DNA of 64,000 bases, from contig CBDCTJ010000007.1 of NCBI GenBank assembly GCA_965222115.1, forward strand, positions 736,001-800,000, given 5' to 3'. The notes beneath the pieces were generated by a model. It did no database searches. It was not told where the DNA came from and saw only the letters and a program-made list of their open reading frames with translations. The stretch is from Planctomycetota bacterium. Its GTDB lineage: Bacteria; Planctomycetota; PLA2; JAEUHO01. Positions within the stretch are counted from its first letter, which is position 1. The number at the start of each line of letters is the position of its first letter. A program made the translations under genes and the position numbers. Positions 1 through 61,012 of the stretch are shown in pieces.

Positions 1-2
1 CC

Positions 3-1715: not shown

Positions 1716-1827
1716 CGGACAAGGCACCTATCGAGAGTCGCTGCATACCGATGTAGGCGCCTACGAGATCGCAGCGAATGGCGCCTCCGTAAGTAAGCCA
1801 CTAAATGCACTGCATGACGCCGTATGC

Positions 1828-1843
1828 GGTTGACGAATCAACC
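1828..1843. promoter_or_regulatory. Perfect palindrome GGTTGA-CGAA-TCAACC, candidate transcription-factor site upstream of the nar/act operon
   Basis: Direct sequence, 6-bp perfect arms in the 216-bp intergenic gap. Function is inferred. Confidence 0.35.
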
Positions 1844-1874
1844 AGCAATCGCGTAGCCAATACTTCACGTTTCA

Positions 1875-1891
1875 AAGGCACGCGTTTGGCA
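1875..1891 (+). promoter_or_regulatory. Candidate sigma54 (-24/-12) promoter AAGGCACGCGTTTGGCA
   Basis: GG(1877-78)-N10-GC(1889-90) with a GGCACG core, ~40 nt upstream of the narC-like start. Confidence 0.4.
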
Positions 1892-1931
1892 CGACATTTC
1901 CTTAGAAGCCCGTGGCTAGGAGGTCCTCACG

Positions 1932-2825
1932 GTGTCAACTCGTCCGGTGCAACTACTGAAGCTTACGTTTTTGTGCGTGGCGTGGACCGTTGCCGCAACC
2001 GACGCGCACGCGGTCGATCCCGCCACCGACTACAAACAGGTGTGCTCTAGCTGTCACACCATTGGCGGGGGGGCACGTACGGGCCCCGATTTGAAAGACG
2101 TGTCGAAGCGCAAAGACCGCGATTGGCTCGTGCGATTCATCGTTGACCCTACGGCCGTGCTCGACTCAGGCGACGAATATGCCGCCCAGTTGTTGACCGA
2201 ATCCCGCGGGGCGCGCATGCCCAACATCTCAGGCATGACCAAGAAGCGCGCGGAACTCCTGCTCGATCTCATCAACACCGAGTCGCAGCTTGAGAAGTCG
2301 CAATTTGCGGGCGTGCAGATTCCGGTGCGCCCCTTTACGAAGGAAGACGTTGAGCTGGGCCGCAAGTACTTCACCGGCGAAGAACGTCTCAAGAATGGCG
2401 GCGCCGCGTGTATCTCCTGCCATCACGTGGGCGGACTCGGCGGCTTTGGCGGCGGGCGTCTCGGTCCGGACCTCACCAAAGTGTCAGAGCGTCTCGGGGG
2501 TCGCGCGGCCTTTGCACCTTGGTTGAGCGCGCCCGCAACACCCACCATGTTGCCCACGTATCGCGACCATCCGATGGAGATGGACGAGATTTTGCCGCTG
2601 GTGGCGTTCTTCGAACACGCTGCGAAGACGCAACAAGAGGAGCCTGGGGCATCGTTGTTCTTGGTGCTCCTGATCGCGGCCATCGGTTGCGGCGCACTCC
2701 TCGCGCTCGCCGGTCGTCTTTGGAACTTCCGCTTCCGCGCCGTGCGGCGCCCGCTTGTTGAATCCAGCGCGTGGAAACACGCCAGCGCGCCCACCGCTGA
2801 ATCCGGGGAAGGAACCTCGTCATGA
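1932..2825 (+). CDS. narC: Membrane-anchored dihaem cytochrome c (NarC-like)
   Basis: Signal peptide, two CxxCH motifs (CSSCH, CISCH), C-terminal TM helix; overlaps the narG start (ATGA). Confidence 0.8.
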
Positions 2826-5800
2826 GCAAGAAAAAGGACCTGCCCTGGGTCAATGATGTCGTCAGCGCCAAGTCGCGCGGCTGGGAAGAGTTCTATCGCA
2901 ACCGTTGGCAGCACGACAAAGTCGTTCGCTCCACGCATGGCGTGAACTGCACCGGCGGCTGCACATGGATGATCCATGTGAAGGACGGCATTGTGACGTG
3001 GGAAATGCAGGGGCTTGATTATCCCAAGTTCTCTAGCGAGCTTCCGCCCTACGAGCCGCGTGGATGCCAGAGAGGCATTTCCTATTCCTGGTATCTCTAC
3101 AGCCCGCTGCGCGTGAAGTATCCCTACGTTCGTGGCGCACTGTTGGATCTTTGGAGAGAAGCCAAGGGCCATCACACCGACCCCGTGGATGCGTGGTCGT
3201 GGCTGGTAAGCGATCCGGAGCGGCGCAAGCGTTGGCAGCGTGCGCGCGGCAAGGGCGGCTTCCGTCGTGCCAAATGGGATGTGGCCTACGAGATCATGGC
3301 GGCGGCCAATGTGCACACGACCAAGACACACGGTCCCGATCGCATTGCCGGGTTCTCGCCGATCCCCGCCATGTCGATGATCAGTTACGCCTCGGGCGCG
3401 CGCATGTTGCAGTTGATGGGTGGCATTTCGTTGTCGTTCTACGACTGGTATTGCGACCTGCCCAACGCCTCACCCGAAACGTGGGGTGAGCAGACCGACG
3501 TCAATGAGAGTGCCGACTGGTTTAACGCCAAGTTGCTCGCCGTCATGGGCTCCAACCTCAATATGACGCGCACGCCCGACTGCCACTTCGCGGCCGAAGC
3601 GCGCCACAACGGCACCAAGATGTGGGTGTTCTCACCCGACTTTAGCCAGGTCTCCAAGTACGCCGACACCTGGATTGCGATCAACGCCGGTCAGGATGGC
3701 GCGTGGTGGATGGCGGTCAACCACGTGCTGCTCAAGGAGTTTCACCACGACCGGCAGGTGCCCTATTTCATTGACTACACCAAGCGCTATACCGACTCGC
3801 CCTTCTTGGTCGAACTCACGGAGAAGGACGGCGTGTGGGAAGCAGGTCAACTGCTGCGCGCCGGTCGCTTGTCCCGCTACGCCGACGAAGAGAACGGCGA
3901 GTGGAAGTTCCTTATGTGGGATGAGGACAAGGGCGATGTGCGCATGCCTAAGGGCACCATGGGCCACCGTTGGCAGTCCAAGAAGGGGCAGTGGAACCTC
4001 GAACTCAAGGACACGTTGACCGACGAAGAAATCGACCCCACGCTCACGTTCCTGGCAACCGGTGATGAAGTGTCCGTGCGCTTTGATGACTTTGCCGAGG
4101 GCGGGAGCGTTGAACGTGGTGTTCCCATCCGCCGCATTGAGCTCGCCGACGGCTCCACTGCCACCGTCACCACCGTCTACGACATCATGATGGCCCAGTA
4201 CGGCGTGTCGCGCGGTCTCGGCGGTGCGTATCCGACCGGCTACGACGATGCAGGCGCGGCCTACACCCCGGCGTGGAGCGAACGCTTTACGGGCATGGAC
4301 CGCAAGGACCTCATCAACTTTGCGCGCGAATGGGGCAGCACGGCGGAACACACAAACGGCAAGTGCACGATCATCATCGGCGCGGGGATCAACCACTGGT
4401 ACCACGCCAACTTGATGTACCGCGCGGGCATTCACGCGTTGTTGTTCTGCGGATGCGTGGGCGTGAACGGCGGTGGCTTGGCGCACTACGTGGGGCAGGA
4501 GAAGCTCGCGCCCATGGAGCCGTGGAGCGCCATGGCGTTTGGCAAGGACTGGTACCCCGGCGTGCGTTTGCAAAACGCGCCATCGTGGCACTACGTACAC
4601 ACCGATCAATGGCGCTACGAAAAGGAGTTTGCCGACTACCACACGGTGCCGGCCAATCAGCCCGAGAAGAGCCTCGCCAGGGGGCATACGATGGACGCGC
4701 AAGTGCGCGCTGTTCGTAATGGGTGGCTGCCCTTCTTCCCGCAGTTTGATAAGAGCCCGCTCAAGGTGGCGGAAAACGCCGTTGAGGCGGGCGCATCCAG
4801 CGATCAAGAAATCGTGGAACACGTCGTCCAGGAATTGAAATCAAAGAAGCTGAGCTTCGCCGTGGAAGATCCCGATGCAGAGGCCAACTGGCCGCGCGTG
4901 TGGTACATCTGGCGTGGCAATGCGCTCATGGCGTCGAGCAAGGGCCATGAGTATTTCCTCAATCACTACCTCGGCACCCACCACAACGACATCGCCAAGG
5001 ATCTTGCCAAAGACCACGTCAACGAGGTCAAGTGGCATGAGCACGCGCCCACCGGCAAGATGGATCTTGTCGTTGACCTTAACTTCCGCATGGATACCTC
5101 GGCGCTCTACTCCGACATCGTGTTGCCGGCCGCTACGTGGTACGAAAAGTCCGACCTCAACTCCACCGACATGCACAGCTTCATTCACCCCTTGTCGGCG
5201 GCGGTGCCCCCCGCATGGGAGTCCAAGAGCGACTGGGCCATCTTCCGCGGTCTCGCCAAGCGCTTTTCCGAAATGGCGGAGAAGCATTTCCCCGAGCCGG
5301 TGAAAGACGTCATGGCGTCGCCGTTGCTGCACGACACGCCCGCCGAGATTGCGCAACCTGACATCAAGGATTGGATCGACGGCGATATTGAGGCCATTCC
5401 TGGCAAGACCATGCCGGGGCTCAAAGTTGTTACGCGCGATTACAAGAATCTCTACAACCAGTTCATTTCGTTGGGACCGTTGGTTCGCGAGAACGGGCTT
5501 GGCGCGCACGGCACCCACTACAACTGCGAAGACTTCTACGACGAGATGGTGGCCACCTGGCCGGTCGAGCACTGGAATGGCAAGACCTACCCATCCCTCA
5601 AGGATGATCTGCAGGCGTGCAACGCTGTGCTCAACTTGGCGACGGTCACCAACGGTGAGCTTGCCTATCGCTCCTACAAAGACCTTGAAGTGAAGACCGG
5701 CTTGGATCTCATCGAGCTTGCTGCGCCCACGCGCGCGCTACGCACCGACTTTGAAGCCATTCAGGCCCGGCCGCAGCGACTAATCAACAGCCCCATGTGG

Positions 5801-6460
5801 TCGGGGGTTACGTCGGGCGGGCGTGCCTACGCACCGTTCACGTTCCAAAAGGAATACAACGTGCCGTGGCGCACGCTCACGGGTCGTCAACATCTGTACC
5901 TGGACCATCCCGGCTACATCCAGTTTGGCGAGCACGTGCCCACCTACAAGCCCAAGCCGTTGCCCACGCAGTATGCCGACCTCGTGGTGAGCGAAGAAGT
6001 GGGTCCCACGTTGCAGCTCAACTACCTGACGCCACACGGCAAATGGCACATTCACTCGACCTACGGTGACAACGAACGCATGACCACGCTGTCGCGCGGC
6101 TGTGAACCGTTCTGGATGAACGACAAAGACGCACAGACGCTCGACATCAACGACAACGACTGGGTGGAAGTGCATAACGACCACGGCGTGGTGGTTACGC
6201 GCGCGGCGGTGTCGGCGCGTATTCCACGCGGCATTTGCATTATCTACCACTCGCCCGAGCGAACGACCGTGCCGCGGTCACCGCTGCGGGGCAACCGACG
6301 TGCCGGCGGGCATAACAGCCTCACGCGCACACGACTCAAACCCAACTTGATGGTGGGCGGCTATGCCCAGTTCACCTACCACTTCAACTACTGGGGTCCC
6401 ACCGGCTGTAACCGCGACACGCACATCTACGTGCGCAAGTTGCCCAAGTTGATGTGGTAA
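2822..6460 (+). CDS. narG: Respiratory nitrate reductase alpha subunit
   Basis: 1212 aa; [14 protein letters not shown]0 motif, [17 protein letters not shown] and [11 protein letters not shown] motifs; no Tat signal. Confidence 0.97.
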
Positions 6461-6470
6461 GGAGCACGCC

Positions 6471-7961
6471 ATGGACGTTCGTTCCCAAATCTCGATGGTA
6501 TTCCACCTCGACAAGTGCATCGGATGCCATACGTGCAGCATTGCCTGCAAAAACGTATGGACCGACCGCAAGGGCACCGAGTACATGTGGTGGAATAACG
6601 TAGAAACCAAGCCCGGTACCGGCTTCCCGACCAAGTGGGAAGACCAAGAGCAGTACCGCGGCGGTTGGCACATGGTCAACGGTCGGCTTGAGTTGCGCTC
6701 CACCAGCAAAAAGAAGATTGTTGGCAATATCTTCCACAACCCGTCGATGCCCAGCATTGACGACTACTACGAGCCGTGGACCTACGACTTTCAGAATCTT
6801 TTTACGGCGGAAGAGGGCGACGACCAGCCCACCGCGCGTCCGATCTCGAAGATCACCGGCAATCCCATGGACATCGAAGCCGGTCCCAACTGGGACGACG
6901 ACCTCGGCGGGTCCCAGGTCTACGCCGCCAACGACCCCAATCTGGAGGGGCTCACCCCCGAAGAGAAGCAACAGCTTTTTGGCATTGAGCGTTTGGTGTT
7001 CTTCTACTTCCCGCGCATTTGCAATCACTGTTTGAATCCGTCTTGCGTTGCGTCCTGCCCGTCCGGGGCACTCTACAAGCGCGGGGAAGATGGCATTGTG
7101 CTCATTGACCAGAAGGTGTGTCGCGCGTGGCGTTCGTGCGTGGCCGCGTGTCCCTACAAGAAGACCTACTTCAACTGGCAAACCGGTAAGTCCGAAAAGT
7201 GCATTCTGTGTTTCCCGCGACTTGAAACCGGTCAAGCGCCGGCATGTTTCCACTCGTGTGTGGGGCGCATTCGCTACTTGGGTGTCATGCTCTACGATGC
7301 CGAGCGCATTGAAGAAGTGGCCAAGATGGACCCGGCCGACATGGTAGAAGCGCAGCGTGAGATGTTGCTCGATCCCCACGATCCGGCGGTCATTAAGGCG
7401 GCGCGCGAGAATGGGGTGCACGACAGCGTGATTGAATCGGCGCAGCGTTCGCCGGTGTATGAGTTTGTGAAGAAGTGGAAGATTGCGTTGCCGCCGCACG
7501 TGGAGTGGCGCACGCTGCCCATGTTGTTTTACGTGCCGCCGCTCTTGCCCGTTATGTCGAAGAAGGAAGGCGACACGGTGGCCCAGTCCTCCGACGCACT
7601 CTTCCACGAGATCGAGGAATCGCGTGCGCCTATGTCGTTCCTCGGCAATCTCTTCGGCGGGGGAAGTACAGCTCCCGTTACCTATGCGCTGCGCAAACAG
7701 ATGGCGGTACGGCTTTATCGGCGATCGGTCACGGTGGGCGATGTGGACGAGGCGGTATTGGAACGCAGCCTGCGCGACGCCGACACCACGCGTGAGGAGT
7801 GTGAAGCCATTTATAAGCTCACGGCGCTTTGCACATTTGAGGAGCGCTTCGTGATTCCGCCCATGCATCGCGAAGAAGCCATTGAAATGATGAAGGATCC
7901 GCACGAACACAAGCAAGAAGCGGGCTTTGGCTTCCTCTCCGGGCCGAGGAGAGGTTCATGA
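6471..7961 (+). CDS. narH: Respiratory nitrate reductase beta subunit
   Basis: LDKCIGCHTCSIACKNVW, RICNHCLNPSCVASCP and CILCFPR Fe-S motifs. Confidence 0.97.
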   Translation: MDVRSQISMVFHLDKCIGCHTCSIACKNVWTDRKGTEYMWWNNVETKPGTGFPTKWEDQEQYRGGWHMVNGRLELRSTSKKKIVGNIFHNPSMPSIDDYYEPWTYDFQNLFTAEEGDDQPTARPISKITGNPMDIEAGPNWDDDLGGSQVYAANDPNLEGLTPEEKQQLFGIERLVFFYFPRICNHCLNPSCVASCPSGALYKRGEDGIVLIDQKVCRAWRSCVAACPYKKTYFNWQTGKSEKCILCFPRLETGQAPACFHSCVGRIRYLGVMLYDAERIEEVAKMDPADMVEAQREMLLDPHDPAVIKAARENGVHDSVIESAQRSPVYEFVKKWKIALPPHVEWRTLPMLFYVPPLLPVMSKKEGDTVAQSSDALFHEIEESRAPMSFLGNLFGGGSTAPVTYALRKQMAVRLYRRSVTVGDVDEAVLERSLRDADTTREECEAIYKLTALCTFEERFVIPPMHREEAIEMMKDPHEHKQEAGFGFLSGPRRGS

Positions 7962-8575
7962 ACGCGCCCACTCCCAGCCGAACCAAGCCCATGCAAGCGC
8001 TTCACGACGCCCTGTCCACACTCTTGCTCTACCCCGATGCCGATGCTACCAGCGATCTTGTTACCGCCAGTCGCGTAGTGGAGCAGGAAGCAACGGCGTT
8101 TCCGGACCTCCAACAGGCCGCCGCATCCTTTCGCGCGTTTCTGGAATCGACGGACGATACGAAGCGCGAAGAGTTGTTCACGGGCGTCTTCGACATCAAT
8201 CCCACGTGCACCATGGAACTTGGGTGGCATCTCTACGGAGAAGACTACAAACGCGGGTCGTTCCTCGTAGACATGCGCAAGACCATGCACATGGTGGGGG
8301 TGGAAGAGAGCGCCGAACTACCTGACCACTTGACCCATGCCCTGCGCGTGCTTGGACGTTTGCCAACGCCCAAAGACGTGCAGTTCTCAACCGACTACGT
8401 GCAGCCCGCCATCGCCAAGATGCTTGAGGGCTACACCGATGCGTCGAGTCCCTGGCAACCCCTGCTCACCGCCGTGCTGGGGATGCTCGTGTCGCACTAC
8501 GGCGAAACCAACGAAATCGTGGGCAATCCCAGCGCCGAGTCGCAGGGGCCCTATGAACCCGTGTCGCCTGCGTAA
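7958..8575 (+). CDS. narJ: Nitrate reductase molybdenum cofactor assembly chaperone
   Basis: LLYP, LYGEDYKRG and ELPDHL motifs; lies between narH and narI. Confidence 0.9.
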   Translation: MNAPTPSRTKPMQALHDALSTLLLYPDADATSDLVTASRVVEQEATAFPDLQQAAASFRAFLESTDDTKREELFTGVFDINPTCTMELGWHLYGEDYKRGSFLVDMRKTMHMVGVEESAELPDHLTHALRVLGRLPTPKDVQFSTDYVQPAIAKMLEGYTDASSPWQPLLTAVLGMLVSHYGETNEIVGNPSAESQGPYEPVSPA

Positions 8576-8586
8576 GGAGCCGCGCC

Positions 8587-9333
8587 ATGCCGGGCAGCGA
8601 TCAATCCCACCATCTTGACGTCCTCCTGTATGGCGTCTTTCCCTTTGTCGCGATGATTGTGTTTTTCATTGGCACGATCTACCGCTACCGCAGCCAGAAG
8701 TTCACTTACTCAAGTCTGTCATCGCAGTTCTTGGAGAACGATCGCCACTTCTGGGCCACGGTACCGTTTCACTACGGGATCTTGTTTGTGATCCTTGGCC
8801 ACGTCGTGGCATTCCTCGTTCCTCGCGCCATCCTCGCGTGGAACGGTCATCCCGTGCGGCTGTTGATCCTCGAAATCTCGGCCATGATTGCTGCGCTGTT
8901 GGCGCTGGTGGGTCTCATCAACCTCATTGTGCGGCGATTTCGAAATACACGTGTGCGCATGGTGACCAGCGTGGCCGACTGGGTGCTCTACGCCATGTTG
9001 CTCTTCCAAATCGTGACGGGCCTCATGATTGCAGGACACCACACGTGGGGCTCTTCATGGTTTGCGTCCACCATGGCGCCCTATCTCTGGTCGCTGGTCA
9101 AACTCAATCCCGACATCTCCTATATCACGCCGATGCCACTGGTCGTGAAGTTGCACGTCATTGGCAACTTCGCCCTGATCTTCGTGTTTCCCTTCACCCG
9201 CTTGGTGCACGTCCTGGTGATTCCCAATACGTACTTTTTCCGTAAGACGCAAGTGGTGCGCTGGAACTATGACCGTCGTGCCTATCGAGACCCCGCCGCC
9301 TCGGCGCCCAAGCCCCCTGAGGCCACATCATGA
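8587..9333 (+). CDS. narI: Respiratory nitrate reductase gamma subunit (dihaem cytochrome b)
   Basis: SSLSSQFLE, FHYGIL..GH and KLH..FPFTRLVH give four haem-ligating His; five TM segments. Confidence 0.95.
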   Translation: MPGSDQSHHLDVLLYGVFPFVAMIVFFIGTIYRYRSQKFTYSSLSSQFLENDRHFWATVPFHYGILFVILGHVVAFLVPRAILAWNGHPVRLLILEISAMIAALLALVGLINLIVRRFRNTRVRMVTSVADWVLYAMLLFQIVTGLMIAGHHTWGSSWFASTMAPYLWSLVKLNPDISYITPMPLVVKLHVIGNFALIFVFPFTRLVHVLVIPNTYFFRKTQVVRWNYDRRAYRDPAASAPKPPEATS

Positions 9334-10958
9334 GCCGCACGCCACAGCGCTGGGACGTCGAAGACGACGCATTTTGGGCGTCAACGGGCAAGCGCATCGC
9401 CAACCGCAACCTCTGGATCTCCATTCCCAATCTGCTGTGCGGATTTGCCGTATGGCTCTATTGGGGCATGTTGGCCAAGTTCATTCAGAAGATCCACTTC
9501 GCCAATCCCACGCTCTTTGACTTTACCTTCATGAACGACGGGAAAAGCTACGGTACGGGCGACGAGTACCGCGCGCTCATGTTCACGCTGCCCGCGGTGG
9601 CCGGCCTCGCCGGTGCCACCTTGCGCATTCCCAACTCGTTCATGATCGCCATTTGCGGCGGTCGCAACGTCAAGTTCATGACCACCATCATGCTCATGCT
9701 CCCTGCCATTGGTGCGGGCATTGCGTTGCAAAATCCCGACGTGTCGTTCTTTACACTCATCGTCTTGGCGGCGCTCTCCGGCGTGGGGGGTGGCGCCTTC
9801 GCTTCGTCCATGTCCAACATCAGCTTCTTCTTTCCCAAGCGCGTGCAGGGGCTTTCGCTGGGCTTGAATGCGGGCCTGGGCAATCTGGGCGTAAGCGTCA
9901 TGCAGTTCTTGCTGCCCTGGATCATTACCTTTGGTGCGTTTGGCGCCCTGGGTGGGGACCCGTACGCGGTCGGCGAATCGAGCATGTGGGTGCAGAACGC
10001 GGCGCTTGTGTGGATCCCCGTTTTGGCACTGCTTGCGGTGCTCGCCTTCTTTGGCATGAACAACCTTCCCCAGCACAAGTGCGGCCCCACGTTGGTTGCC
10101 ATTGGCAAATACCTGTGGCTCACGATGCTTGGATTTGTCGGGGCGGCCGTCGGCATAGCTCTCTTGATCATGCCGTGGCCCGGCGTACCGTCACTCCTTA
10201 AGACGTTCATTGTGTTGGTGATCGCCGTCTGCGTAACGCTCTTGGTCATGCGGTTTGGGACGCCGAAAGACACCAAAGAAAACCTCGTCGATCAGTTCGC
10301 GATTTTCAAGAACAAGCACAACTGGATCATGACGTGGCTCTACACGATGACATTTGGCTCGTTCATCGGTTACGCCAACGCGTTTCCAAAGTTGATTGAC
10401 GACGTCTTTGGCGTGGTGCGCGTAGGGGCGGACGGCGCCCCGTTGGCCGAGACCATTGCCAACACCAACGCCCCCATCGCGTCCAACTACATCTGGATTG
10501 GCGCCGGCGTCGGCGCGCTGATTCGTCCGCTCGGCGGCTGGTTGAGCGACAAATGGGGCGGCGCGCGCGTGACCCATTGGGACACGATCGTGATGATTGC
10601 GGCCACCATTGGCGCGGGCTACTTCGTGGCACAGGCAAGCCAATCACCAACTCCCGAGACGTACTTCGTACCGTTCTTGTTGCTCTTTGTCCTGCTGTTT
10701 GCAACGACCGGCATCGGCAACGGCTCCACGTTTCGGATGATTCCGATCATCTTCTCCAAGAAACATGCGGGCCCCGTCTTGGGGTGGACATCGGCCATCG
10801 CGGCGTATGGCGCCTACCTGATTCCGAAGATCTTTGCCACACAGATCAAAAATGGAACGCCGGAAGTGGCGCTGTATGGCTTTGCGGGCTACTACGCCAC
10901 CTGCTTGGCCGTGAACTGGTGGTTCTACGCACGGAAGGGCGCGGAGGTGCCCTGCTAA
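9330..10958 (+). CDS. narK: Nitrate/nitrite antiporter (NarK2-type MFS)
   Basis: WDVED..FW...RNLWISIP, NAGLGNLG, TFGSFIG and GIGNGSTFRMIP motifs. Confidence 0.93.
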   Translation: MSRTPQRWDVEDDAFWASTGKRIANRNLWISIPNLLCGFAVWLYWGMLAKFIQKIHFANPTLFDFTFMNDGKSYGTGDEYRALMFTLPAVAGLAGATLRIPNSFMIAICGGRNVKFMTTIMLMLPAIGAGIALQNPDVSFFTLIVLAALSGVGGGAFASSMSNISFFFPKRVQGLSLGLNAGLGNLGVSVMQFLLPWIITFGAFGALGGDPYAVGESSMWVQNAALVWIPVLALLAVLAFFGMNNLPQHKCGPTLVAIGKYLWLTMLGFVGAAVGIALLIMPWPGVPSLLKTFIVLVIAVCVTLLVMRFGTPKDTKENLVDQFAIFKNKHNWIMTWLYTMTFGSFIGYANAFPKLIDDVFGVVRVGADGAPLAETIANTNAPIASNYIWIGAGVGALIRPLGGWLSDKWGGARVTHWDTIVMIAATIGAGYFVAQASQSPTPETYFVPFLLLFVLLFATTGIGNGSTFRMIPIIFSKKHAGPVLGWTSAIAAYGAYLIPKIFATQIKNGTPEVALYGFAGYYATCLAVNWWFYARKGAEVPC

Positions 10959-11620
10959 TGCCGCGTTCCACACGGATCACCCTGCTGACGATTGCGGCCG
11001 TGGCCATCTTTGCGGCGCTGATTCCTCGATTGGCTGAGTCACGACTCCCGGGCGACAACCAGGGGTATTCCCCGGAGCAACCCATTGACTATTCTCACAG
11101 GTTGCACGCGGGCACACTCGGCATTGACTGTCTCTACTGTCATAGTGCTGCCGAACACGGTCGTCATGCCGGCATTCCTTCCGCCGACGTGTGCATGAAC
11201 TGCCATTCCTTCGTAACCGCGGCCTGGGACACCATTCAAAACGAGTCTGTGGTGGCCAAGAAAGAAGGACGCAAGCCTGAGGCCATCGTGTCGCCCGAGC
11301 TTGAGAAGCTCTACCGCGCCCTTGGGCTCAACCGTGACCGTGTGCGCGACGAATCACTGGAGCCTACGGCCATTGAATGGATGCAAGTCCACCGCTTGCC
11401 CGATTTTACCTACTTCGATCACAGCGTACATGTGCGTGCGGGCGTGAAGTGTCAAGATTGCCATGGCCCCGTCGAGAGCATGGAGCGCATGCGGCAACAT
11501 GAATCGCTCAGCATGGGGTGGTGTGTGGACTGCCATCGCGAAAACAACAAGGCGATAGAGGCGGACGGCAAGGATGAAAACCGCAAAGCATCTACGTCGT
11601 GTGCCGCGTGTCACTACTAG
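10958..11620 (+). CDS. actA: Alternative complex III pentahaem cytochrome c subunit ActA
   Basis: Start ATG overlaps the narK TAA (TAATG). N-terminal TM, PEQPIDYSHRLHAG, five CxxCH, LPDFTYFDHSVH and LSMGWCVDCH. Confidence 0.9.
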   Translation: MPRSTRITLLTIAAVAIFAALIPRLAESRLPGDNQGYSPEQPIDYSHRLHAGTLGIDCLYCHSAAEHGRHAGIPSADVCMNCHSFVTAAWDTIQNESVVAKKEGRKPEAIVSPELEKLYRALGLNRDRVRDESLEPTAIEWMQVHRLPDFTYFDHSVHVRAGVKCQDCHGPVESMERMRQHESLSMGWCVDCHRENNKAIEADGKDENRKASTSCAACHY

Positions 11621-11638
11621 GGAGCAAAGAGGTACCAC

Positions 11639-14600
11639 ATGTCGCTTCATGATCACGGATCCGACGCGCAGGAGCATGGGGCACTTGAGCGTGTTTCGTT
11701 GTCGGCGTCGCGACGCGATTTTCTAAAAGTCGCCGGATTTTCCGTTGCCACCGCGATGGTGTCGGGGTGTGGGCGCGGTGAAACGCATCGCGCGGTTCCC
11801 TTTCTCAAGAAGCCCGAAACCGTTACACCCGGTCAGTCGAGTTATTACGCCACGGGGTGTCGCGGGTGCGATGCCGGTTGCGGGCTCTTGGTCAAAGTGC
11901 GCGACGGACGTCCTATCAAGATCGAAGGCAACGATCTTCATCCGCTAAATGGCGGGCGCACGTGCGCCGTGGGCCAGGCGTCGATTCTTGGGCTCTACGA
12001 TTCGCACCGTTTGACAGCGCCGCACATGGAGAAGAAACCGTCCAACTGGAAGAACGTGGACGCCGCGATTCGCAGTGCGCTGGCCACCGCCAAGAGTTCG
12101 TCCGGTGCGGTACGTCTGGTTACGGGGTCGGTACAAAGTCCGTCACTGCAAGCCGCCATCGACGGCTTCCTCGCAACCACGGGTAACGGAAAGCACATTC
12201 AGGTTGACGGCTTGTCAAACGCGGCGATTGCCGATGCGCACGAAGCGCTCTACGGCACGCGTACGATTCCGCGCTATCACTTCGAACGGGCAACCGCCCT
12301 CGTTTCGCTCGATGCCGATTTCCTGGGGACCTGGCTCTCGCCGGTTGAATTTGCGCGTGGCTATCACGCGGCGCGCTCGCTTGAGCCGGGCACGTCGTTC
12401 TGCCACCACACACAATTTGAATCGCATATGTCGCTTACGGGTGGAAATGCCGATCGTCGTTTTCGCGTAACGCCGTCGGAGTTGCCGCTGGTGGCTGCTG
12501 CATTGGCGGAAGCCGTGGCCAAGGCCCGCGGGCAACGTGTGCCATGGGGCAAGGCGCCGAAATCGTCGCTCGCCGATGCCGATCTCGAAGCGGTTGCCAA
12601 GCGACTGTTGGACGCGCCGGCGGGCCGCGCGCTGGTCGTTTGTGGTTCGCAGGACGTGACGACGCAGAAGATCACGGCTTACCTCAATTACACGTTGGGT
12701 GCTACGGCCCCTGCCCATCGCGAGCGCACCATTGATCTGTCGGCACCGTCGCGTCAAGCGCTGGGTGATGATCGCGCATTTGATGAACTGCTTGGCGAAC
12801 TGCGCGACGGACGTGTTCGCGTGCTGATTTTCGCCGGCGCCAATCCGGTTTATACGCATCCAAAGGGAGACGAACTCGCGTCCTTGATGGAAAGGGTGCC
12901 CACCATCGTTTCCATGTCGGAGCGCATGGACGAAACCGCTACCCACGCCCACATCGTTTGTCCGCCGCCGCACTTTCTCTCCGCATGGTTCGATGCCGAA
13001 CCGGTGGCGGGACTGTTTACGCTGTCGCAACCCACGTTGGCATCGCTCGGTGATACGCGCCAAGTCATGGAGAGCCTGCTGGCATGGTCGGGGAGGACAG
13101 TGTCGGGGAAGGCAGTGTCGGCTTACGACCATGTACGTACGGTGTGGCGTGATCAAATTCATGCGCGTGCGAAGACGAGCGATTCGTTTGATGCGTGGTG
13201 GCACCAGGCACTTCACGATGGCTTTGCGACCGTCAAAGCAGGCGAGACAGGCACGCCAACATTCGCGCAAGATGCGCCCATCGCACTGAGCACGGCGGAA
13301 ACGGGTGACGGGCTCGCACTCGTGACCTACGAAAAGATTGCGATTCGAGACGGGCGTCACGCGCACAATCCATGGCTACAAGAGTTGCCCGATCCCATCA
13401 ATAAGACGTCGTGGCAAAACACAGCCGACGTTTCTCCGAGTACGGCCGCCAAGCTCGGTATCGCTGACGGCGACGTGGTTCGGTTGACATCCGGTGAACA
13501 CAACGTGTCGCTGCCTGCGCTTGTGCAACCCGGCATGGCGGATGACACGGTGGCCGTCGCGCTTGGGTACGGCGTGCTAGGCACTCACCGTTTTCATGAT
13601 GCAGGCCCCGACTGGATTCAAGCCACGCCCACGGTTGAAGACGGTGGCACGGTGGGCACGCGAATTGTATCGCTTCGCGGACCTGTTCGCGTGGAGCGTA
13701 CCGGCAACACTGTGCCGCTCGCGCGCACCCAGATCTACGATCGGCTTGAGGTCCCCAAGCACTTGGCGCCCAAGGGTGGCGAGACGCGACCGGTATATCA
13801 ATCAACGACCTACGACGAGTTCAAGGTCGATCCACACGCGGGCGCCCACCACGAGCACCCAATTGTCGATTTGTGGGATGAGGACCATCCCTACAAGGGA
13901 CATCATTGGGAGTTGGCGATTGATCTCACGTCGTGTACCGGCTGCTCGGCATGTGTGGTGGCGTGCCAGTCGGAGAACAACATTCCGGTCGTTGGGAAAG
14001 ACGAGATGATTCGTCAGCGCGAAATGCACTGGCTACGCATCGATCGCTACTTCCAAGGCGAAGATGACGACATGCGCATAGCGCATCAACCGATGATGTG
14101 CCAGCAATGCGATCACGCGCCGTGCGAAACCGTGTGTCCGGTACTCGCAACCGTACACGGTGAGGAAGGGCTCAACCAGCAGGCCTACAACCGCTGTGTC
14201 GGCACGCGGTATTGCTCCAACAACTGCCCCTACAAGGTGCGGCGCTTCAACTGGTTTGACTACGCGCACGACGACCAGCTTGAGAACATGTCGCTCAACC
14301 CCGACGTGACCGTCCGCTCGCGGGGCGTGATGGAAAAATGCACGTTCTGTGTGCAGCGCATTCAGGAACAAAAGGCCGTGGCGGCACGCGAAGGCGGGCG
14401 CCCGCTTCAGCGCGACGAGATTCAGACGGCGTGTATGCAAGTATGCCCCGTGGACGCCATCATCTTTGGCGATAGCAATGACAAGCAGAGCGCGGTTTCG
14501 AAACAAGCCGCCTCACCACGCGCCTACCGCGCGCTGGCCGAGCTCAATGTGCAGCCGTCGGTGTCGTACTTGCGCGATGTGAGAGACCGGGAGCCCGATG

Positions 14601-14644
14601 CCAAGCACGGTCACGCCGCGGAAGGAGGGACGCACCATGACTAG
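11639..14644 (+). CDS. actB: Alternative complex III subunit ActB (Tat-exported molybdopterin-oxidoreductase-like plus 4Fe-4S domain)
   Basis: Tat motif SRRDFLK then lipobox-like VSGC; [10 protein letters not shown]; C-terminal [37 protein letters not shown] and [10 protein letters not shown]. Confidence 0.93.
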
Positions 14645-16016
14645 TCATGACTCTCCGCTGCGCGAACCGTTGGTGGATGGCAACAAGACGATCAGCGATG
14701 TGACGCGCGATATCTGCCGTCCGCTAGAAGGCAAGCCGACCAAGCTTTGGTACATCGGCATGGCGATTTCGCTCTCGGCGCTCGTCATCGGGTTGCTCTC
14801 CATCGGCTATCTCTTTGTGAAGGGCATTGGCACCTGGGGACTCAACCCCACGGTCGGCTGGGCCTTTGACATCACCAACTTCGTGTTCTGGGTGGGTATT
14901 GGCCACGCGGGCACGTTGATTTCGGCTGTCCTCTTGCTCTTCCGCCAACGCTGGCGCACGGGCGTAAACCGTTCGGCCGAGGCCATGACGATCTTTGCCG
15001 TCATGTGTGCCGGATTGTTCCCGTTGATTCACATGGGTCGCCCGTGGCTCGCGCATTGGGTATTTCCCTACGCCAACGATCGCGGTTCGTTGTGGGTGAA
15101 CTGGCGATCCCCGCTCCTGTGGGACGTATTCGCCATTGGCACCTACTTCATCATCTCGCTGGTGTTCTGGTACCTCGGACTCCTGCCCGACATCGCCACC
15201 TTGCGCGACCGGGCCAAGAGCGGAATGCGCAAGGTTTTATTGAAGATTGGAAGCCTTGGCTGGAACGGCTCCTCGCGCACCTGGCATCGATACGAGATCG
15301 TCGCGCTCTTGTTGGCCGGACTGGCCACACCGCTTGTGTTCTCCGTTCACACCATCGTGAGCTTTGATTTTGCGACGTCCGTGATTCCGGGGTGGCACAC
15401 AACCATTTTCCCGCCCTACTTTGTGGCGGGCGCCATCTTCTCCGGCCTCGCGATGGTGCTTACGCTGATGCTGGTGGCGCGCAAGGTGATGCGGCTTGAG
15501 AACTACATCACCAAGGTTCACGTGGGCGCCATGTGCAAGCTGATCGTGGGCACCGGCGGCATAGTGGCCATGGCGTATGCCACCGAGTTCTTCATTTCGT
15601 GGTATTCGGGCAACCCCTACGAGCAGTTCGTGTTTCTCAACCGCGCGCGCGGCCCCATGGCGTGGGCCTACTGGACCATGGTGATCTGCAACGTGGTCAC
15701 GCCGCAGCTCTTCTGGTTCAAGAAGGTGCGCGAAAATTTCGCGATTGTGTTCATTTGCTCCATCGCCATCAACATTGGCATGTGGTTTGAGCGCTTCGTC
15801 ATCATTACGACCTCGCTGCATCGCGATTTCCTGCCGTCCTCGTGGTCCTCCTACACACCCACGCTGATTGAGATCGCTACGTTTGTCGGAAGCTTCGGCC
15901 TGTTCTTTACGTGCTTCCTCCTGTTCTGTCGCTTCTTGCCCGTGGTCGCAATTGCGGAAGTCAAGAGCGTCCTGCATTACGGGCAACGGAAGAAGCCCGC
16001 GGAGGAAGAGGCATGA
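14637..16016 (+). CDS. actC: Alternative complex III subunit ActC (NrfD/PsrC family)
   Basis: [29 protein letters not shown] and [19 protein letters not shown]; start ATG 14637 follows GGAGG. Confidence 0.95.
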
Positions 16017-16537
16017 GTCGTCGCGTTTGGGGCACCTTCGAATCCGAAGACAACGTCATCCGCGCCACGCGCGCGCTGCGTGAGGAAGGCTACAAGATCG
16101 CGGATGTCTATTCGCCGTTTCCCATTCACGGCATCGATGAAGCGATGGGCATCAAGCGTTCCAAGCTCACGTGGGTGTGTTTCTTGGCCGGGTTGATCGG
16201 CGCCACGCTGGCCATCTACTTCCAATTTTGGACCTCGGCGGTGGACTGGCCCCTCAACGTGGGCGGCAAACCCTACAACTCCTTGCCCGCGTTCATTCCG
16301 ATTGCCTTTGAGATCACGATTCTGTTCGCGGGGTTGGGTGTGGTGGCCGCGTTGCTTATTCGTTGCGGCCTTTTACCGGGCAAACGCGCCGACCTCCCGC
16401 CCGCGGCGGTTACGGATGATGAAATCGTGATTTCCCTACGCCTAAAGTCGGCCCGTCACACGGTCGATGACGCGCGCGCATTGTTGATCAAGCACGGCGC
16501 AACCGATGTCAACGACGACGTGGAGGACGCGGCATGA
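16013..16537 (+). CDS. actD: Alternative complex III subunit ActD (DUF3341)
   Basis: [14 protein letters not shown] and [25 protein letters not shown]; ATGA overlap with actC. Confidence 0.93.
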
Positions 16538-17163
16538 ATCGCCCGCATCCTGTCGAGTTCTTGTTGGGTCTCTTGATTCTGGTCGGGATTGGCCTCCACG
16601 TGTTGGTGGGGTCGGACTACAGCAAGCGCAACTACGAGTTCATGCCCAACATGGTAGAGAACCCGGGATACGAGGCCCAGGACCCCAATCCCAACTTCAC
16701 CGACGGGCGAACCTTGCGACCGCCGGTGAAAGGAACGGTTGCGCGTGGGCATAAGCCGTTGATGCATGAGGGCGTCATGCTTGACGTCACCACCACCAAC
16801 TGGAAGAAGCTCAGCCCGGAGCAGCAGTCCGCCTGGGACGCACTGACGCCACACTACGCGTTTGATTCAATGTCGGCCAAGGATCAGGCACGCGCGCTAA
16901 AACGAGGGAAGGTCATCTTTGAATCCATCTGCGCCGCGTGCCACGGCGTGAGTGGCGACGGTCAAACGCCAGTGACGAAGCGCGGCATGCCGCCGCCGCC
17001 CACACTGATGAGTGACGACATGCGAGCACGAAGTGACGGTCGCATGTTTCGCACCATCACGGTGGGCGAAGGAAACATGGCGTCGCATGCGAATCAGGTA
17101 CGGAGAGACGAGCGATGGTTAGTCATTCACTACCTACGCAGCTTGCAACAGGCCAAGCAGTAG
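16534..17163 (+). CDS. actE: Alternative complex III monohaem cytochrome c subunit ActE
   Basis: PNM...YEAQ, RPPVKGTVARG, CAACH and ERWLVIHYLRSLQ. Confidence 0.9.
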   Translation: MNRPHPVEFLLGLLILVGIGLHVLVGSDYSKRNYEFMPNMVENPGYEAQDPNPNFTDGRTLRPPVKGTVARGHKPLMHEGVMLDVTTTNWKKLSPEQQSAWDALTPHYAFDSMSAKDQARALKRGKVIFESICAACHGVSGDGQTPVTKRGMPPPPTLMSDDMRARSDGRMFRTITVGEGNMASHANQVRRDERWLVIHYLRSLQQAKQ

Positions 17164-18323
17164 CGTCCACGTCCTCCGCCCCGCGCCTCGATCGCGGGCT
17201 GTTGGTGGTGGGCGTCATTGGACTTGCCATTGCGGCTCTGGGTTGGTTGCTCGACCGCGAGGCGGCGGCGGGTGCGTGGCTGGTTGCGGCCAACTACGGG
17301 TTGGGCCTTGGTATCGGCGCCCTGGCGTTTCTCGCGATCAGCCGCGTCATGGGCGCGGGTTGGCACGTGGCGTTTCGCCGTATACCGGAGGCGATGGCAG
17401 GCTCGCTGCCCTTGGCGGCCATCCTCATGTTCCTCGCCATTTTGCTGGCGCTGCCCGTATACGAGTGGAACCACAGTGACGTCGTGGCCAAGGACTCGCT
17501 GCTGCAGCACAAGTCGGCGTGGCTCAACGTCCCCGGCATTCTCATTCGCGCGGTCATTTGTTTAGCGGCGTGGTGCGTATTTGCCGCCCTTATGCGCCGT
17601 ACCTCACGCGAACAGGACAAAGGGGACGGCGAGGCGAAATCGTCATGCTTGCTCGTGCTCTCGGCGTCGTTCCTGGCGGTATTCGCGATTACATGGGCGG
17701 TGGCCAGTTTCGATTGGATCATGTCGCTGGAGCCGCATTGGTTCAGCACCGTCTACGCCATCTATACCTTTTCCAGTGCGTTGGTGTCGGCGATCGCCGT
17801 CATGATCATCGCCGCCATTTTGTTGGAGCGATGGGCGCCCATGCGCGGTGTCGTGCGTACGGAGCATCTTCACGACTTGGGCAAGCTACTCAAGGGCATG
17901 TGCACCTTCTGGGCCTACATCTGGTTCTGCCAATACATGTTGATCTGGTACAGCAACATTCCCGAGGAGACGACCTACTTTCTTCGCCGCACGACGCATG
18001 GCTGGACGGGCTTTGTACTGGCTTCGCTCGTGCTTATGTGGGTGGTGCCGTTCTTGGGTCTCTTGCCGCGACCCGCAAAACGAAATCGAACTCATCTTAT
18101 GCGCATTGCTTTGGCGGTGCTTGTTGGGCGCTGGATTGATCTCCACGTGTTGGTGATACCGGGCATCGCCCCCAAGTCGCCGTGGTCCTTGGGTTGGGAG
18201 ATTCCCGCAGTAATTGGCGTGGTGTCGCTGGTGTTGTGGGCGTCGGTGCGTGCTTTTGGATCAGCGCCAGCGGTGCCGACGGGCGATCCCTACCTCATGG
18301 AAAGCCAGGGATACAACGCGTAA
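17115..18323 (+). CDS. actF: Alternative complex III subunit ActF (start uncertain)
   Basis: DWIMSLEPHWFST, HLHDLGKL and QYMLIWYSNIPEE; multi-TM. Confidence 0.92.
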   Translation: MVSHSLPTQLATGQAVASTSSAPRLDRGLLVVGVIGLAIAALGWLLDREAAAGAWLVAANYGLGLGIGALAFLAISRVMGAGWHVAFRRIPEAMAGSLPLAAILMFLAILLALPVYEWNHSDVVAKDSLLQHKSAWLNVPGILIRAVICLAAWCVFAALMRRTSREQDKGDGEAKSSCLLVLSASFLAVFAITWAVASFDWIMSLEPHWFSTVYAIYTFSSALVSAIAVMIIAAILLERWAPMRGVVRTEHLHDLGKLLKGMCTFWAYIWFCQYMLIWYSNIPEETTYFLRRTTHGWTGFVLASLVLMWVVPFLGLLPRPAKRNRTHLMRIALAVLVGRWIDLHVLVIPGIAPKSPWSLGWEIPAVIGVVSLVLWASVRAFGSAPAVPTGDPYLMESQGYNA

Positions 18324-18326
18324 GCG

Positions 18327-18854
18327 ATGGATGTGGATCCGTTCTCAGAACTGGAACTCGATCACCGCCTGATCGAAGTCGTGCTCACCGCGTTGGAAGC
18401 GGCGCGTCCCGATACGGTGGATGCAGCCTTCTTTGTTGACGTTGTCGCGTTCGTGCGCGATTTCGCTGATGACGTACACCATCGTCACGAAGAGCGTTTG
18501 GCCTTCCCCGCCCTTGAAGCCGCAGGCGTATTGCGCCACATGGGCCCCATCGGCGTCATGCTTGCCGAACATGACGATGCGCGCGAGTTGATCTTACGAC
18601 TTGAGGGACTCTCGACCGCGGGCGAACTCGCTGCTGCTTGTGAAGCGGGGCGCGCGTACGCCGCGCTGATGCGCGATCACATCCGCAAAGAGGAGCAAGC
18701 GTTGTTCGTCATTGGACGTTCGGTACTTGGGGATGATGCCGCCGCCGAACTCAGCGACCGGATTGCCGTCGTAGGCAAGGCGCGCGTACTCCGGGCGTCC
18801 TTTCAGCGACAGGCCGATGCGATCGCCGCGCGGGTTGCGTCGTCCTCGGCATAG
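18327..18854 (+). CDS. Hemerythrin/HHE di-iron domain protein
   Basis: DHRLIE, HHRHEE..FP, GPIGVMLAEH and HIRKEE..LF motifs; 3 nt after actF. Confidence 0.85.
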   Translation: MDVDPFSELELDHRLIEVVLTALEAARPDTVDAAFFVDVVAFVRDFADDVHHRHEERLAFPALEAAGVLRHMGPIGVMLAEHDDARELILRLEGLSTAGELAAACEAGRAYAALMRDHIRKEEQALFVIGRSVLGDDAAAELSDRIAVVGKARVLRASFQRQADAIAARVASSSA

Positions 18855-18912
18855 CGAAAACCGCTCAAGCGCGTCGTGCGCGAATGAGGTCAACCGCGTA
18901 TCCTTTGGGTGA

Positions 18913-50126: not shown

Positions 50127-51038
50127 ATGGTGTCGAATATGGATCTTGGGAAGTTGATCGAGCAGTTCAGGTGTGACGATGAGTGCAGGCAGTATCTAGA
50201 GGACCTTCGGTGGCCTGACGGCCCACAGTGCCCGGATTGCGGGTCTATGTCGGTGTCAAACGTGGAGAAGCGTCCGGTTTATGACTGCAACCATTGTCGC
50301 TACCAGTTCTCAGTCACAGTGCAAACCGTGATGGAGAATACGAAGCTGCCACTTTGGAAGTGGTTCCTCGCAGCATACCTCATGTGCGAGTCGAAGAAGG
50401 GAATCAGTGCCAACCAGTTGAAGCGGATGCTCAGGATCTCCTACAAGACCGCTTGGCACCTGTGCCACCGGATCAGGGCGGCCATGGGATCTATCGCTGA
50501 GAATCCATTGTCGGGCGTTGTAGAGGTGGATGAGACCTACATGGGTGGCAGCACCGATGGGCGCCGTGGCAAGAGGTCAAAGGGGAAGAAGAGGCGGGGG
50601 CGCGGTACGGACAAGACCATGGTGGTGGGTGCTGTTCAGCGTGAGGGGCAGATCCGGTTGAAGGTGACGCCCGGTAGGGCGACCAAGAAGACCCTCCACA
50701 AGTTCGTGGAGGACCACGCTGGAGAGGCTGAGAGGGTCATCACCGATGGGTACAGGGGCTACCGTGGCATCCCTGGACATGAGTGGATCGATAAGGACAA
50801 GGATGGCTATGTTTCGGCTGGTGGGGTGAACACACAGGCCATTGAGAGCGTTTGGAGCCTGTTCAAGCGGTCTGTGGTGGGGACGTACCACAACATGAGC
50901 ACGAAGCACCTACCTGCCTACCTGGACGAAATGGAGTGGCGGTTCAACAACCGTGGAAACGAGTACATGTTCCGTGACACGATGCTGGCGATGCTTGGGT
51001 GTGGGCCGGTGCCGTATCAGGAGTTGATTGGGAACTAA
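50127..51038 (+). CDS. IS1595-family DDE transposase (alternative start 50139)
   Basis: RWPDG-CPDC..CNHC zinc ribbon, KGISANQL..SYKTAW HTH, VEVDETY, ITDG, NTQAIESVWSLFKR and YLDE..WRFNNR. Confidence 0.96.
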   Translation: MVSNMDLGKLIEQFRCDDECRQYLEDLRWPDGPQCPDCGSMSVSNVEKRPVYDCNHCRYQFSVTVQTVMENTKLPLWKWFLAAYLMCESKKGISANQLKRMLRISYKTAWHLCHRIRAAMGSIAENPLSGVVEVDETYMGGSTDGRRGKRSKGKKRRGRGTDKTMVVGAVQREGQIRLKVTPGRATKKTLHKFVEDHAGEAERVITDGYRGYRGIPGHEWIDKDKDGYVSAGGVNTQAIESVWSLFKRSVVGTYHNMSTKHLPAYLDEMEWRFNNRGNEYMFRDTMLAMLGCGPVPYQELIGN

Positions 51039-51048
51039 CAGGTTTTCG

Positions 51049-51471
51049 CTAGCCAGCTTGCTCTGTATCCGATGATTCAATCAACTCCTGGGTCACTAGC
51101 ACACCTAGCACTTCTGGAGGGGTGTGAGGAGAACGGGCGAACCCATTCGCAATCCTACGCATTAGACCCGTTGAAATAGGAGACTGACGGAAGAGTTTGT
51201 TGTCGCTCTCAAGAGAATACAATGTACCGATCGGGACGACCTTGGCCATTGCGTAATATACTATCGTGCTGTGGGTAACCCACGGATGCTCATTTGATTC
51301 GATCTGACAAGTCGCATCTAGCCCCGCCCTGCTTGTCGTCAGATTGACAATGGCGACTCGATCAGGATCGCTTCCGGGGTGTGAGCACACAATCCACAAG
51401 TGTGAGTCAATATCCGGTCTACTCGGCAACAGAAAAGTGTCACCGTAGCGCAGTGAACTAGCTTGGCTCAT
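51049..51471 (-). CDS. Putative PemK/MazF-like toxin paired with the Panacea antitoxin
   Basis: GDTFLL..HLWIV..VAIVNLTT..EHPWVTHST pattern; ATGA overlap with the antitoxin stop. Confidence 0.6.
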   Translation of the reverse strand: MSQASSLRYGDTFLLPSRPDIDSHLWIVCSHPGSDPDRVAIVNLTTSRAGLDATCQIESNEHPWVTHSTIVYYAMAKVVPIGTLYSLESDNKLFRQSPISTGLMRRIANGFARSPHTPPEVLGVLVTQELIESSDTEQAG

Positions 51472-60179: not shown

Positions 60180-60233
60180 AGTGCGTTCCGTTGGAGGTTT
60201 CTCTGCTGTTCTTATCTGATGTGCCGTTTGTGT

Positions 60234-61007: not shown

Positions 61008-61012
61008 GGTGA

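Follow-up and report, generated by a model that had tools for sequence, protein, structure and literature searches.

A nitrate reductase operon of a Planctomycetota bacterium that contains a complete alternative complex III

Introduction

So far as we know, alternative complex III (ACIII) has been seen solely in the supply of electrons to oxygen reductases or photosynthetic carriers, and the textbook nitrate reductase NarGHI takes electrons directly from quinol and conserves energy through a redox loop alone. Here we analyse 64,000 nucleotides from a Planctomycetota bacterium (GenBank assembly GCA_965222115.1, contig CBDCTJ010000007.1, positions 736,001 to 800,000; this whole stretch is called the window), in which a complete ACIII, six subunits in canonical order, is encoded inside a nar operon. 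The ACIIIs of Flavobacterium johnsoniae (6BTM), Rhodothermus marinus (6F0K) and Roseiflexus castenholzii (6LOD) have the same six subunits in the same order. Unlike them, the window ACIII lies in a nar operon and not before caa3/aa3 genes, it falls in a nested clade of its own, and its acceptor is likely to be the dihaem cytochrome NarC instead of an oxidase cytochrome c domain or auracyanin. The passages on ACIII in five reports (10.1101/197269, PMC3903129, PMC13608581, PMC6303296, 10.64898/2026.01.22.701106) treat the complex as a partner of oxidases or as a general complex III, and in no other role.

On the nitrate side, the locus resembles narCGHJIKT of Thermus thermophilus, which opens with narC and continues with narGHJI and genes for narK transporters, and where NarC is a membrane-anchored periplasmic dihaem cytochrome that binds NarI and bridges electrons to periplasmic partners (PMC7694296). 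As described in that review, the Thermus operon is without act genes and NarC is thought to replace complex III, whereas the window has a complete ACIII. Ties between Nar and a complex III have been reported or suggested in two other settings. Streptomyces coelicolor Nar1 depends in vivo on the bcc-aa3 supercomplex and co-purifies with it, the partner there being the bcc complex and not ACIII; the abstract of that report mentions neither NarC nor operon linkage (PMC7931247). In Thermogutta the nar genes adjoin bc1 genes, and participation of complex III was suggested by the authors (PMC5673643).

We found the same gene neighbourhood as in the window once in print. A 2023 report in FEMS Microbiol Lett (PMC10732223) lists 13 instances, in metagenome genomes of Planctomycetota and KSB1, of a six-gene 'NrfD-like complex' downstream of nar, consisting of a pentahaem cytochrome, an iron-sulfur-molybdopterin fusion, NrfD, actD, 'ccoP' and 'ccoII'. 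Its authors found no match to any complex already described and suggested that the cluster is either a new nitrite reductase, similar to NrfAH, or has some respiratory role that they did not specify; ACIII identity, the clade, NarC and the fusions described below are not reported in its sections 9-10. Several of the nar-act loci studied here bear its isolate names (OFTM). We found no ACIII-Nar module by name in the full-text literature outside subscription journals and supplements, and the nar-coupled ACIII clade with NarC appears to be new, with this one partial precedent, which in those sections did not recognise ACIII.

Results

A tight operon joins narGHJI to the genes of a complete ACIII

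Gene identities were taken from the list of open reading frames (ORFs) together with matches to Pfam, NCBIfam and the sequences of PDB chains. The genes and sites are as follows, with positions in the window.

24-1715, + strand: NarK-type nitrate/nitrite transporter fused to DoxX (NarK1-DoxX); MFS_1 3e-35, DoxX 1.9e-11; TIGR00886 273 bits, below the cut-off of 311.7
1887-1901, + strand: sigma-54-like -24/-12 motif TGGCAC-N5-TTCC, 31 nt 5' of the narC start; weak evidence
1932-2825, + strand: NarC, periplasmic dihaem cytochrome c; CSSCH and CISCH; Cytochrom_C 6.4e-11
2822-6460, + strand: NarG, catalytic subunit, cytoplasmic type; TIGR01580 1487 bits (cut-off 1084)
6471-7961, + strand: NarH, iron-sulfur subunit; TIGR01660 655 bits (cut-off 524)
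7958-8575, + strand: NarJ, assembly chaperone; PF02613 30.2 bits (cut-off 22.2); TIGR00684 57.6 bits, just below the cut-off of 59.35
8587-9333, + strand: NarI, dihaem cytochrome b membrane subunit; TIGR00351 132 bits (cut-off 106)
9330-10958, + strand: NarK2, nitrate/nitrite transporter; TIGR00886 264 bits, below the cut-off
10958-11620, + strand: ActA, pentahaem cytochrome c with an N-terminal membrane helix; five CxxCH; 6btm_A 2.8e-47, also 8k9e_A, 6f0k_A and 6lod_A
11639-14644, + strand: ActB, fusion of molybdopterin-like and iron-sulfur domains, 1001 aa; 6btm_B 3.8e-177, 6f0k_B 2.4e-173
14637-16016, + strand: ActC, NrfD-like quinol-binding membrane subunit; 6btm_C 2e-189
16013-16537, + strand: ActD; PF11821 188.6 bits (cut-off 25.7); ATGA overlap with actC
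16534-17163, + strand: ActE, monohaem cytochrome c with an N-terminal helix; one CAACH; Cytochrome_CBB3 9.5e-09
17115 (ATG) or 17202 (TTG) to 18323, + strand: ActF, second NrfD-like membrane subunit; 6f0k_F 4.6e-57, 6btm_F 6.6e-54
18327-18854, + strand: hemerythrin-domain protein; PF01814 58.8 bits
18913-22485, + strand: Ser/Thr kinase (Pkinase), the next gene after hemerythrin

The junctions from narC to hemerythrin are overlaps of 4, 4, 4, 1, 8, 4 and 4 nt or gaps of 10, 11, 18 and 3 nt. ActE/ActF is the sole uncertain one, with either a 49-nt overlap (ATG at 17115) or a gap of about 38 nt (TTG at 17202). A preliminary description of this DNA had recorded a single-strand run of genes from narC to hemerythrin with overlaps or with gaps of at most 18 nt, which holds throughout except possibly at ActE/ActF. 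It had also noted that the narK2 stop and the actA start share the sequence TAATG, which we see at 10956-10960, and that no haem-copper oxidase genes follow; the next gene encodes a kinase, and a Pfam scan shows no haem-copper oxidase anywhere in the 64-kb window. The actC start (ATG at 14637), which overlaps actB by 8 nt, has GGAAGGAGGG just 5' of it. DNA contigs from two runs (two samples of one study, the source sample possibly among them) span 10322-12600 without any difference.

NarK1-DoxX ends 216 nt before narC. In the region 1-19500, no sigma-70-like promoters were found (0 versus 6.0 in shuffled sequences, standard deviation 2.2) using the E. coli consensus, which may not suit this host, and terminator-like sites occur at chance level (26 versus 19.1 expected, standard deviation 5.1). 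The sigma-54-like motif has two matches in the window, against 0.8 expected. The tight operon is seen directly, and we read narC-narGHJI-narK-actABCDEF as one respiratory module; from this layout we infer co-transcription of nar and act.

The act genes encode the full set of ACIII features: a pentahaem ActA, a fused ActB with Molybdop_Fe4S4 (69-115) and Fer4 (759-872) domains assigned by Pfam, two NrfD-like subunits (ActC and ActF), ActD and a monohaem ActE. ActF gave no Pfam match and was identified through PDB chains. Quinol:cytochrome c oxidoreductase activity is the predicted function. Qrc (QrcABCD), the menaquinone reductase of sulfate reducers, likewise has multihaem c, molybdopterin-like, iron-sulfur and NrfD-like subunits. 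It differs in being without ActD, ActE and ActF, all of which are present here, and the NCBIfam Qrc models stay under their cut-offs on the window proteins (QrcA 64 versus 180 bits, QrcB 144 versus 440, QrcC 220 versus 400); the features that define Qrc are not those of this complex.

On the nitrate reductase side, NarG, NarH and NarI all exceed curated equivalog cut-offs and have the features of a cytoplasm-facing NarGHI. The N-terminus of NarG (MSKKKDLPW...) lacks a twin-arginine signal, and the cluster motif HGVNCTGGC is present; without that signal the nitrate reductase would face the cytoplasm, consistent with the two NarK transporters. Residues H62, H72, H190 and H208 of NarI align with the haem ligands H56, H66, H187 and H205 of E. 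coli NarI, and Arg91 occupies the position of E. coli Lys86 (alignment to 1q16_C/3egw_C). All five residues are invariant in NarI of 12 nar-act loci. NarC starts with a hydrophobic signal peptide, has a membrane helix at its C-terminus and contains two haem motifs, CSSCH and CISCH. A membrane-anchored dihaem cytochrome c encoded first in the operon is the mark of NarC-type nitrate reductases, and we liken the window protein to Thermus NarC by this architecture.

The nar-act linkage recurs in many bacterial phyla

Conservation was followed in sets of loci that are the best 80 matches of similarity searches, and are not a census. A search with ActD placed nar genes 5' of actA in 4 of 80 loci (L011, L012, L013 and L020), which are among the closest matches. 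With ActA as query, two ActA types appeared among 61 related genomes. The type found in the window (40-61% identity) has NarK2 directly upstream in 18 of 19 loci, and the other type (35-39% identity) in none of 10. Four relatives (G001, G011, G013 and G037) hold both types, the window genome only the first. The second-type ACIII of G013 is followed by an A-family CoxA; the contigs of the other three are too short to tell.

A profile built from 15 first-type ActA proteins (A1) retrieved at least 554 relatives in species genomes, of which the best 80 were kept. Among these, NarI or NarK is encoded directly upstream on the same strand in 67 of the 69 loci with at least 1500 nt of upstream sequence, and NarG, NarH and NarI are all encoded upstream in 39 of 42 with at least 8.5 kb. 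The three exceptions are L161 and L175, which are without nar genes, and L165, which has only a NarC-like gene and a NarI-like gene. A further 75 species-genome loci add the labels Gemmatimonadota, Dormiibacterota, Krumholzibacteriota, Methylomirabilota, Zixiibacteriota, KSB1, Eiseniibacteriota and Pseudomonadota. The nar-act linkage thus recurs in many bacterial phyla and is not confined to this assembly. Uniqueness to one assembly, which the preliminary description had named as a point that would count against its proposal of an ACIII dedicated to nitrate respiration, is not what we see, since the linkage is common.

NarC travels with the module. A NarC-like gene lies directly 5' of narG in 54 of 55 deduplicated nar-act loci with at least 900 nt visible upstream of narG, and before narG in 72 of 73 when 300 nt or more suffices.

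Nitrate-related genes, and not oxidases, follow actF

Among loci that include ActF, an A-family COX1 gene lies 3' of it in 52 of 55 loci without nar versus 0 of 50 nar-linked loci. The CoxA start is a median of 2.8 kb past ActF in the loci without nar, and at least 3.1 kb past ActF is visible in 33 of the 50 nar-linked loci.

The first two ORFs past ActF were scanned in 38 nar-linked loci, and the tallies also take in other loci and the window. They comprise NarK-type major facilitator superfamily (MFS) transporters (7 loci), molybdenum cofactor genes (5 loci), SLAC1-type anion channels (4 loci), an Rrf2 regulator (3 loci), hemerythrin (L171, L193, L197, L012, L013 and the window), a quinol-type nitric oxide (NO) reductase, qNor (one locus, L130), and CtaA (one locus, L150). 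Based on these neighbours, the ACIII is embedded among nitrate-respiration genes, which is more than mere adjacency. Hemerythrin was considered as a conserved member of the module and rejected; it falls within the first two ORFs past ActF in 5 of 41 other nar-act loci and is an occasional accessory gene. The qNor gene of L130 (18306-20513; COX1 plus a NorB cytochrome-c-like domain) is separated from ActF by one unknown gene, and the window genome has no such gene.

Nar-linked ACIIIs form a distinct clade

The ActC tree has 124 rows, the window and 123 of 160 loci; the 37 loci without at least 75% of ActC were left out. The ActC trees are quick trees with one support measure, the Shimodaira-Hasegawa-like approximate likelihood ratio test (SH-aLRT). 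All 56 nar-linked rows fall inside one group of 61 (SH-aLRT 99), which otherwise holds 2 rows without nar and 3 that are undecidable. Rooting the tree with 16 ActF paralogues kept these 61 rows together (support 99), nested within ACIIIs without nar. Nar-linked ACIII is a distinct clade nested in non-nar ACIII, and the comparison with oxidase-linked ACIII that the preliminary description had put forward as a check comes out in favour of its proposal.

The window ActC belongs to a group of 55 rows, 53 of them nar-linked (support 95), that spans ten named phyla, and its nearest neighbour, at 79% identity, is that of L130, from a genome labelled Planctomycetota. Acidobacteriota and Planctomycetota contribute 18 rows each to this one group and eight other named phyla are represented, which therefore points to transfer of the module between phyla.

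NarI and ActA are fused in a related family

About 95 protein clusters (P0006-P0100, 426-474 aa) are NarI-ActA fusions, in which Nitrate_red_gam is joined to a multihaem c domain with at least 97% coverage; all are full-length except two shorter fragments. Three contigs confirm a fusion in a single frame: L165 (the same contig as L204, labelled Gemmataceae), with a NarI-like domain and ActA in one frame at 9347-10642; the metagenome contig L284, at 10004-11311; and L285, which shows the same gene order. L285 is nearly identical to L204, so these represent two distinct lineages. The fusion loci have a NarC-like gene before the fusion and actBCDEF after it, and no NarG or NarH gene lies within 10 kb of the fusion on the three confirming contigs. 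With the fusion as query, 1 of 75 species-genome loci was actually fused. Two candidates were set aside: in L160 a stop codon separates the two genes, and a 534-aa ORF of L165 (9289-10893) is an off-frame artefact, the true fusion frame being 9347-10642.

In the fused NarI domain the outer-haem ligands H72 and H190 and Arg91 are kept in 10 of 10 proteins; of the inner-haem ligands, H62 is missing from all 10 and H208 from 9. The topology would fit a fusion, with the cytoplasmic C-terminus of NarI leading into the membrane helix of ActA and then into its periplasmic haem domain. The family resembles a variant ACIII into which a cytochrome b with one haem has been built. Its existence argues that NarI and ActA are neighbours in the membrane and that, of the NarI haems, the outer haem b is the one of importance to ACIII. 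Structure prediction for the NarI + ActA pair returned a score of 0.00 in two runs, which is no answer and counts neither way.

Other respiratory genes of the genome

The genome was searched as 7 contigs, 90.3% complete. It has one ActD match, at this locus, and by tblastn ActA-F and NarCGHI are single-copy. The preliminary description had raised the possibility of a second, oxidase-linked ACIII in the genome; there is none, and both types occur together only in relatives.

Two COX1-family genes lie elsewhere in the genome and are of the cbb3 type, because a FixO gene adjoins each. Directly upstream of the oxidase on contig C1 are a bc-type cytochrome b gene and a gene for a 1279-aa multihaem cytochrome c (G000:C1:208000-227999, L004). 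The FixO subunit of this oxidase is a 676-aa fusion with additional cytochrome c domains. No complex III gene adjoins the second oxidase, at C7:2407662. A bd-type oxidase gave a weak match.

By tblastn the genome has neither an A-family CoxA nor qNor. NirK, NirS and Nor were not found in this 90%-complete genome, nor was the NosZ propeller, whose search ran without a positive control, so that its absence is weakly supported; RuBisCO large subunit was likewise not found in the genome. An nrfH-nrfA pair is encoded. From this gene content the organism looks like a nitrate-to-ammonium respirer and a microaerophile.

Neighbouring genes and side observations

The DNA upstream of NarK1 (L006:14669-19801, within the 20 kb before the window) encodes a HAMP histidine kinase, a sigma-54-dependent response regulator and an Alginate_exp-family porin. 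A sigma-54 activator is also close to the act genes in L011, an Alginate_exp porin lies 3' of ActF in L156, and the MFS-DoxX fusion recurs 3' of ActF in L129 (17746-19533). Farther upstream, L006:5558-10720 (minus strand) encodes a 1720-aa TIR-nSTAND1-WD40 protein with an architecture as in defence or signalling NTPases. Within the window, 50127-52091 holds an IS1595-family transposase and a SocA/Panacea-domain antitoxin-like gene in DNA of lower G+C (0.54 versus about 0.59), and 57646-63098 (minus strand) a SUF iron-sulfur assembly operon (SufS, SufD, SufC and SufB) with an Rrf2-family regulator first. Used as a taxonomic marker, SufB matches proteins of both Acidobacteriota and Planctomycetota, at 72-80% identity.

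Discussion

We see even chances that the ACIII exchanges electrons with NarC/NarI, most simply in the order quinol, ACIII, NarC, NarI, NarGH. The preliminary description had listed this route, with extra energy conservation, as its first option, and we favour it, with physical contact, the direction of electron flow and the energy gain being points that we infer from gene content. [quoted passage not shown] Menaquinol would be oxidised by ACIII at ActC, and electrons would pass through the iron-sulfur clusters of ActB and the haems of ActA/ActE to those of NarC, then to the outer and inner haems b of NarI, to NarH and to NarG, where nitrate would be reduced. ACIII is known in a supercomplex with an oxidase (6BTM). 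The caa3 oxidase has a fused cytochrome c domain, and NarC would play for Nar the role that this domain plays in the ACIII-oxidase supercomplex. Charge separation by the Nar loop would be kept, and any proton translocation by ACIII would be added on top.

We put forward more tentatively, leaning somewhat against it ourselves as a whole, a broader version: that NarCGHI and the nar ACIII clade form a dedicated nitrate-respiring supercomplex, an anaerobic counterpart of ACIII-caa3, in which NarC docks and electrons reach nitrate through ACIII instead of, or besides, the quinol site of NarI, with a higher proton yield; that this unit has spread horizontally through ten or more phyla; and that it has a derived form without NarGH, in which a one-haem NarI is welded to ActA. 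The claim that the ACIII is dedicated to nitrate respiration, made in the preliminary description, is well supported by comparative genomics (a conserved module, a distinct clade, near-universal NarC, no downstream oxidase, an oxidase-linked second ACIII in relatives, and the NarI-ActA fusions); functionally it stands as a proposal.

Several points weigh against electron flow through ACIII to Nar. NarI may still oxidise quinol itself, with no need of ACIII, because its four haem histidines and the basic Arg91 are kept. The fused NarI domains keep Arg91 and the outer haem, which fits flow from a NarI quinol site to the c haems as well as the reverse, and direction at the interface of NarC/NarI and ACIII is not fixed by sequence data. 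Proton pumping by ACIII is itself a proposal in the literature. Finally, this is the sole ACIII of a genome with two cbb3-type oxidases, so it could serve these.

The last point leads to the rival that survives best, which we nevertheless consider unlikely: that the ACIII works as a general-purpose quinol:cytochrome c oxidoreductase, supplying cbb3-type oxidases, and lies in the nar operon through low-oxygen co-regulation, without direct exchange with Nar. A general role would suit the single ACIII, the CcoN/FixO oxidase at C7:2407662 that has no complex III gene beside it, and the CtaA gene past ActF in one related locus (L150). The other cbb3 oxidase, however, has a bc complex beside it. The preliminary description had regarded an ACIII that is the only one of its genome and serves an oxidase encoded elsewhere as fatal to its proposal, and here the first half applies, with two cbb3 oxidases present, one of which has its own bc complex. 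Co-regulation also sits poorly with the joint retention of nar and act in at least ten phyla, with the nitrate genes that flank act on both sides, with an oxidase downstream in none of the 50 nar-linked loci, and with NarC in 54 of 55 loci and the NarI-ActA fusions.

Flow in the opposite direction strikes us as decidedly improbable. Here NarI would oxidise quinol and NarC would send surplus electrons to the ACIII haems or to a common cytochrome c pool, with ACIII and NarC serving reductases of nitrite, NO or N2O in the periplasm; alternatively, the cluster of six genes would itself encode a nitrite reductase, as guessed in PMC10732223. Thermus NarC is required for growth on nitrite and NO according to the Thermus review (PMC7694296), the nearest relative has a qNor gene past ActF (L130), ActA has a weak cytochrome c552 match, and the outer haem and Arg91 are kept in the fused NarI domains. 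Yet NirK, NirS, the NosZ propeller and Nor were not found in the 90%-complete genome (NosZ without a positive control), and NrfA has its own NrfH; supply to periplasmic denitrification enzymes, another option of the preliminary description, is left without a partner in the genome. Moreover, all six subunits are far closer to ACIII chains of known structure than to any nitrite reductase, and the linkage partner is nar, not nir, nor or nos.

The labelled taxa of the carrier lineages are, we assume, mostly heterotrophic, which we count against the remaining rival, in which the molybdenum enzyme works as a nitrite oxidoreductase. That NarI/NarC export electrons to cytochrome c while ACIII works backwards, passing electrons from cytochrome c to quinone in a Qrc-like way, to drive reverse electron transport or to take up electrons from periplasmic donors, is very improbable: the Thermus review describes a very similar Nitrobacter cluster with a NarC homologue (PMC7694296) and direction cannot be fixed from sequence alone, but NrfHA for nitrite reduction is present, RuBisCO large subunit and an A-family oxidase were not found in the genome, NarG has no twin-arginine signal, the Qrc models fall far under their cut-offs, and ActD, ActE and ActF are present, unlike in Qrc.

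If electrons do pass from quinol through ACIII and NarC to Nar, the locus would represent a new design of respiratory chain for nitrate, a conserved and horizontally mobile module that joins Nar and ACIII via an extra cytochrome c. Estimates of the energy yield of nitrate reduction could then change for its carriers, labelled Acidobacteriota, Planctomycetota, Bacteroidota, Calditrichota and others. An acceptor would be named for a whole clade of ACIII, and NarC would have a function beyond Thermus. The NarI-ActA fusion would be a natural construct for structural work, and the idea is testable in any cultured carrier.

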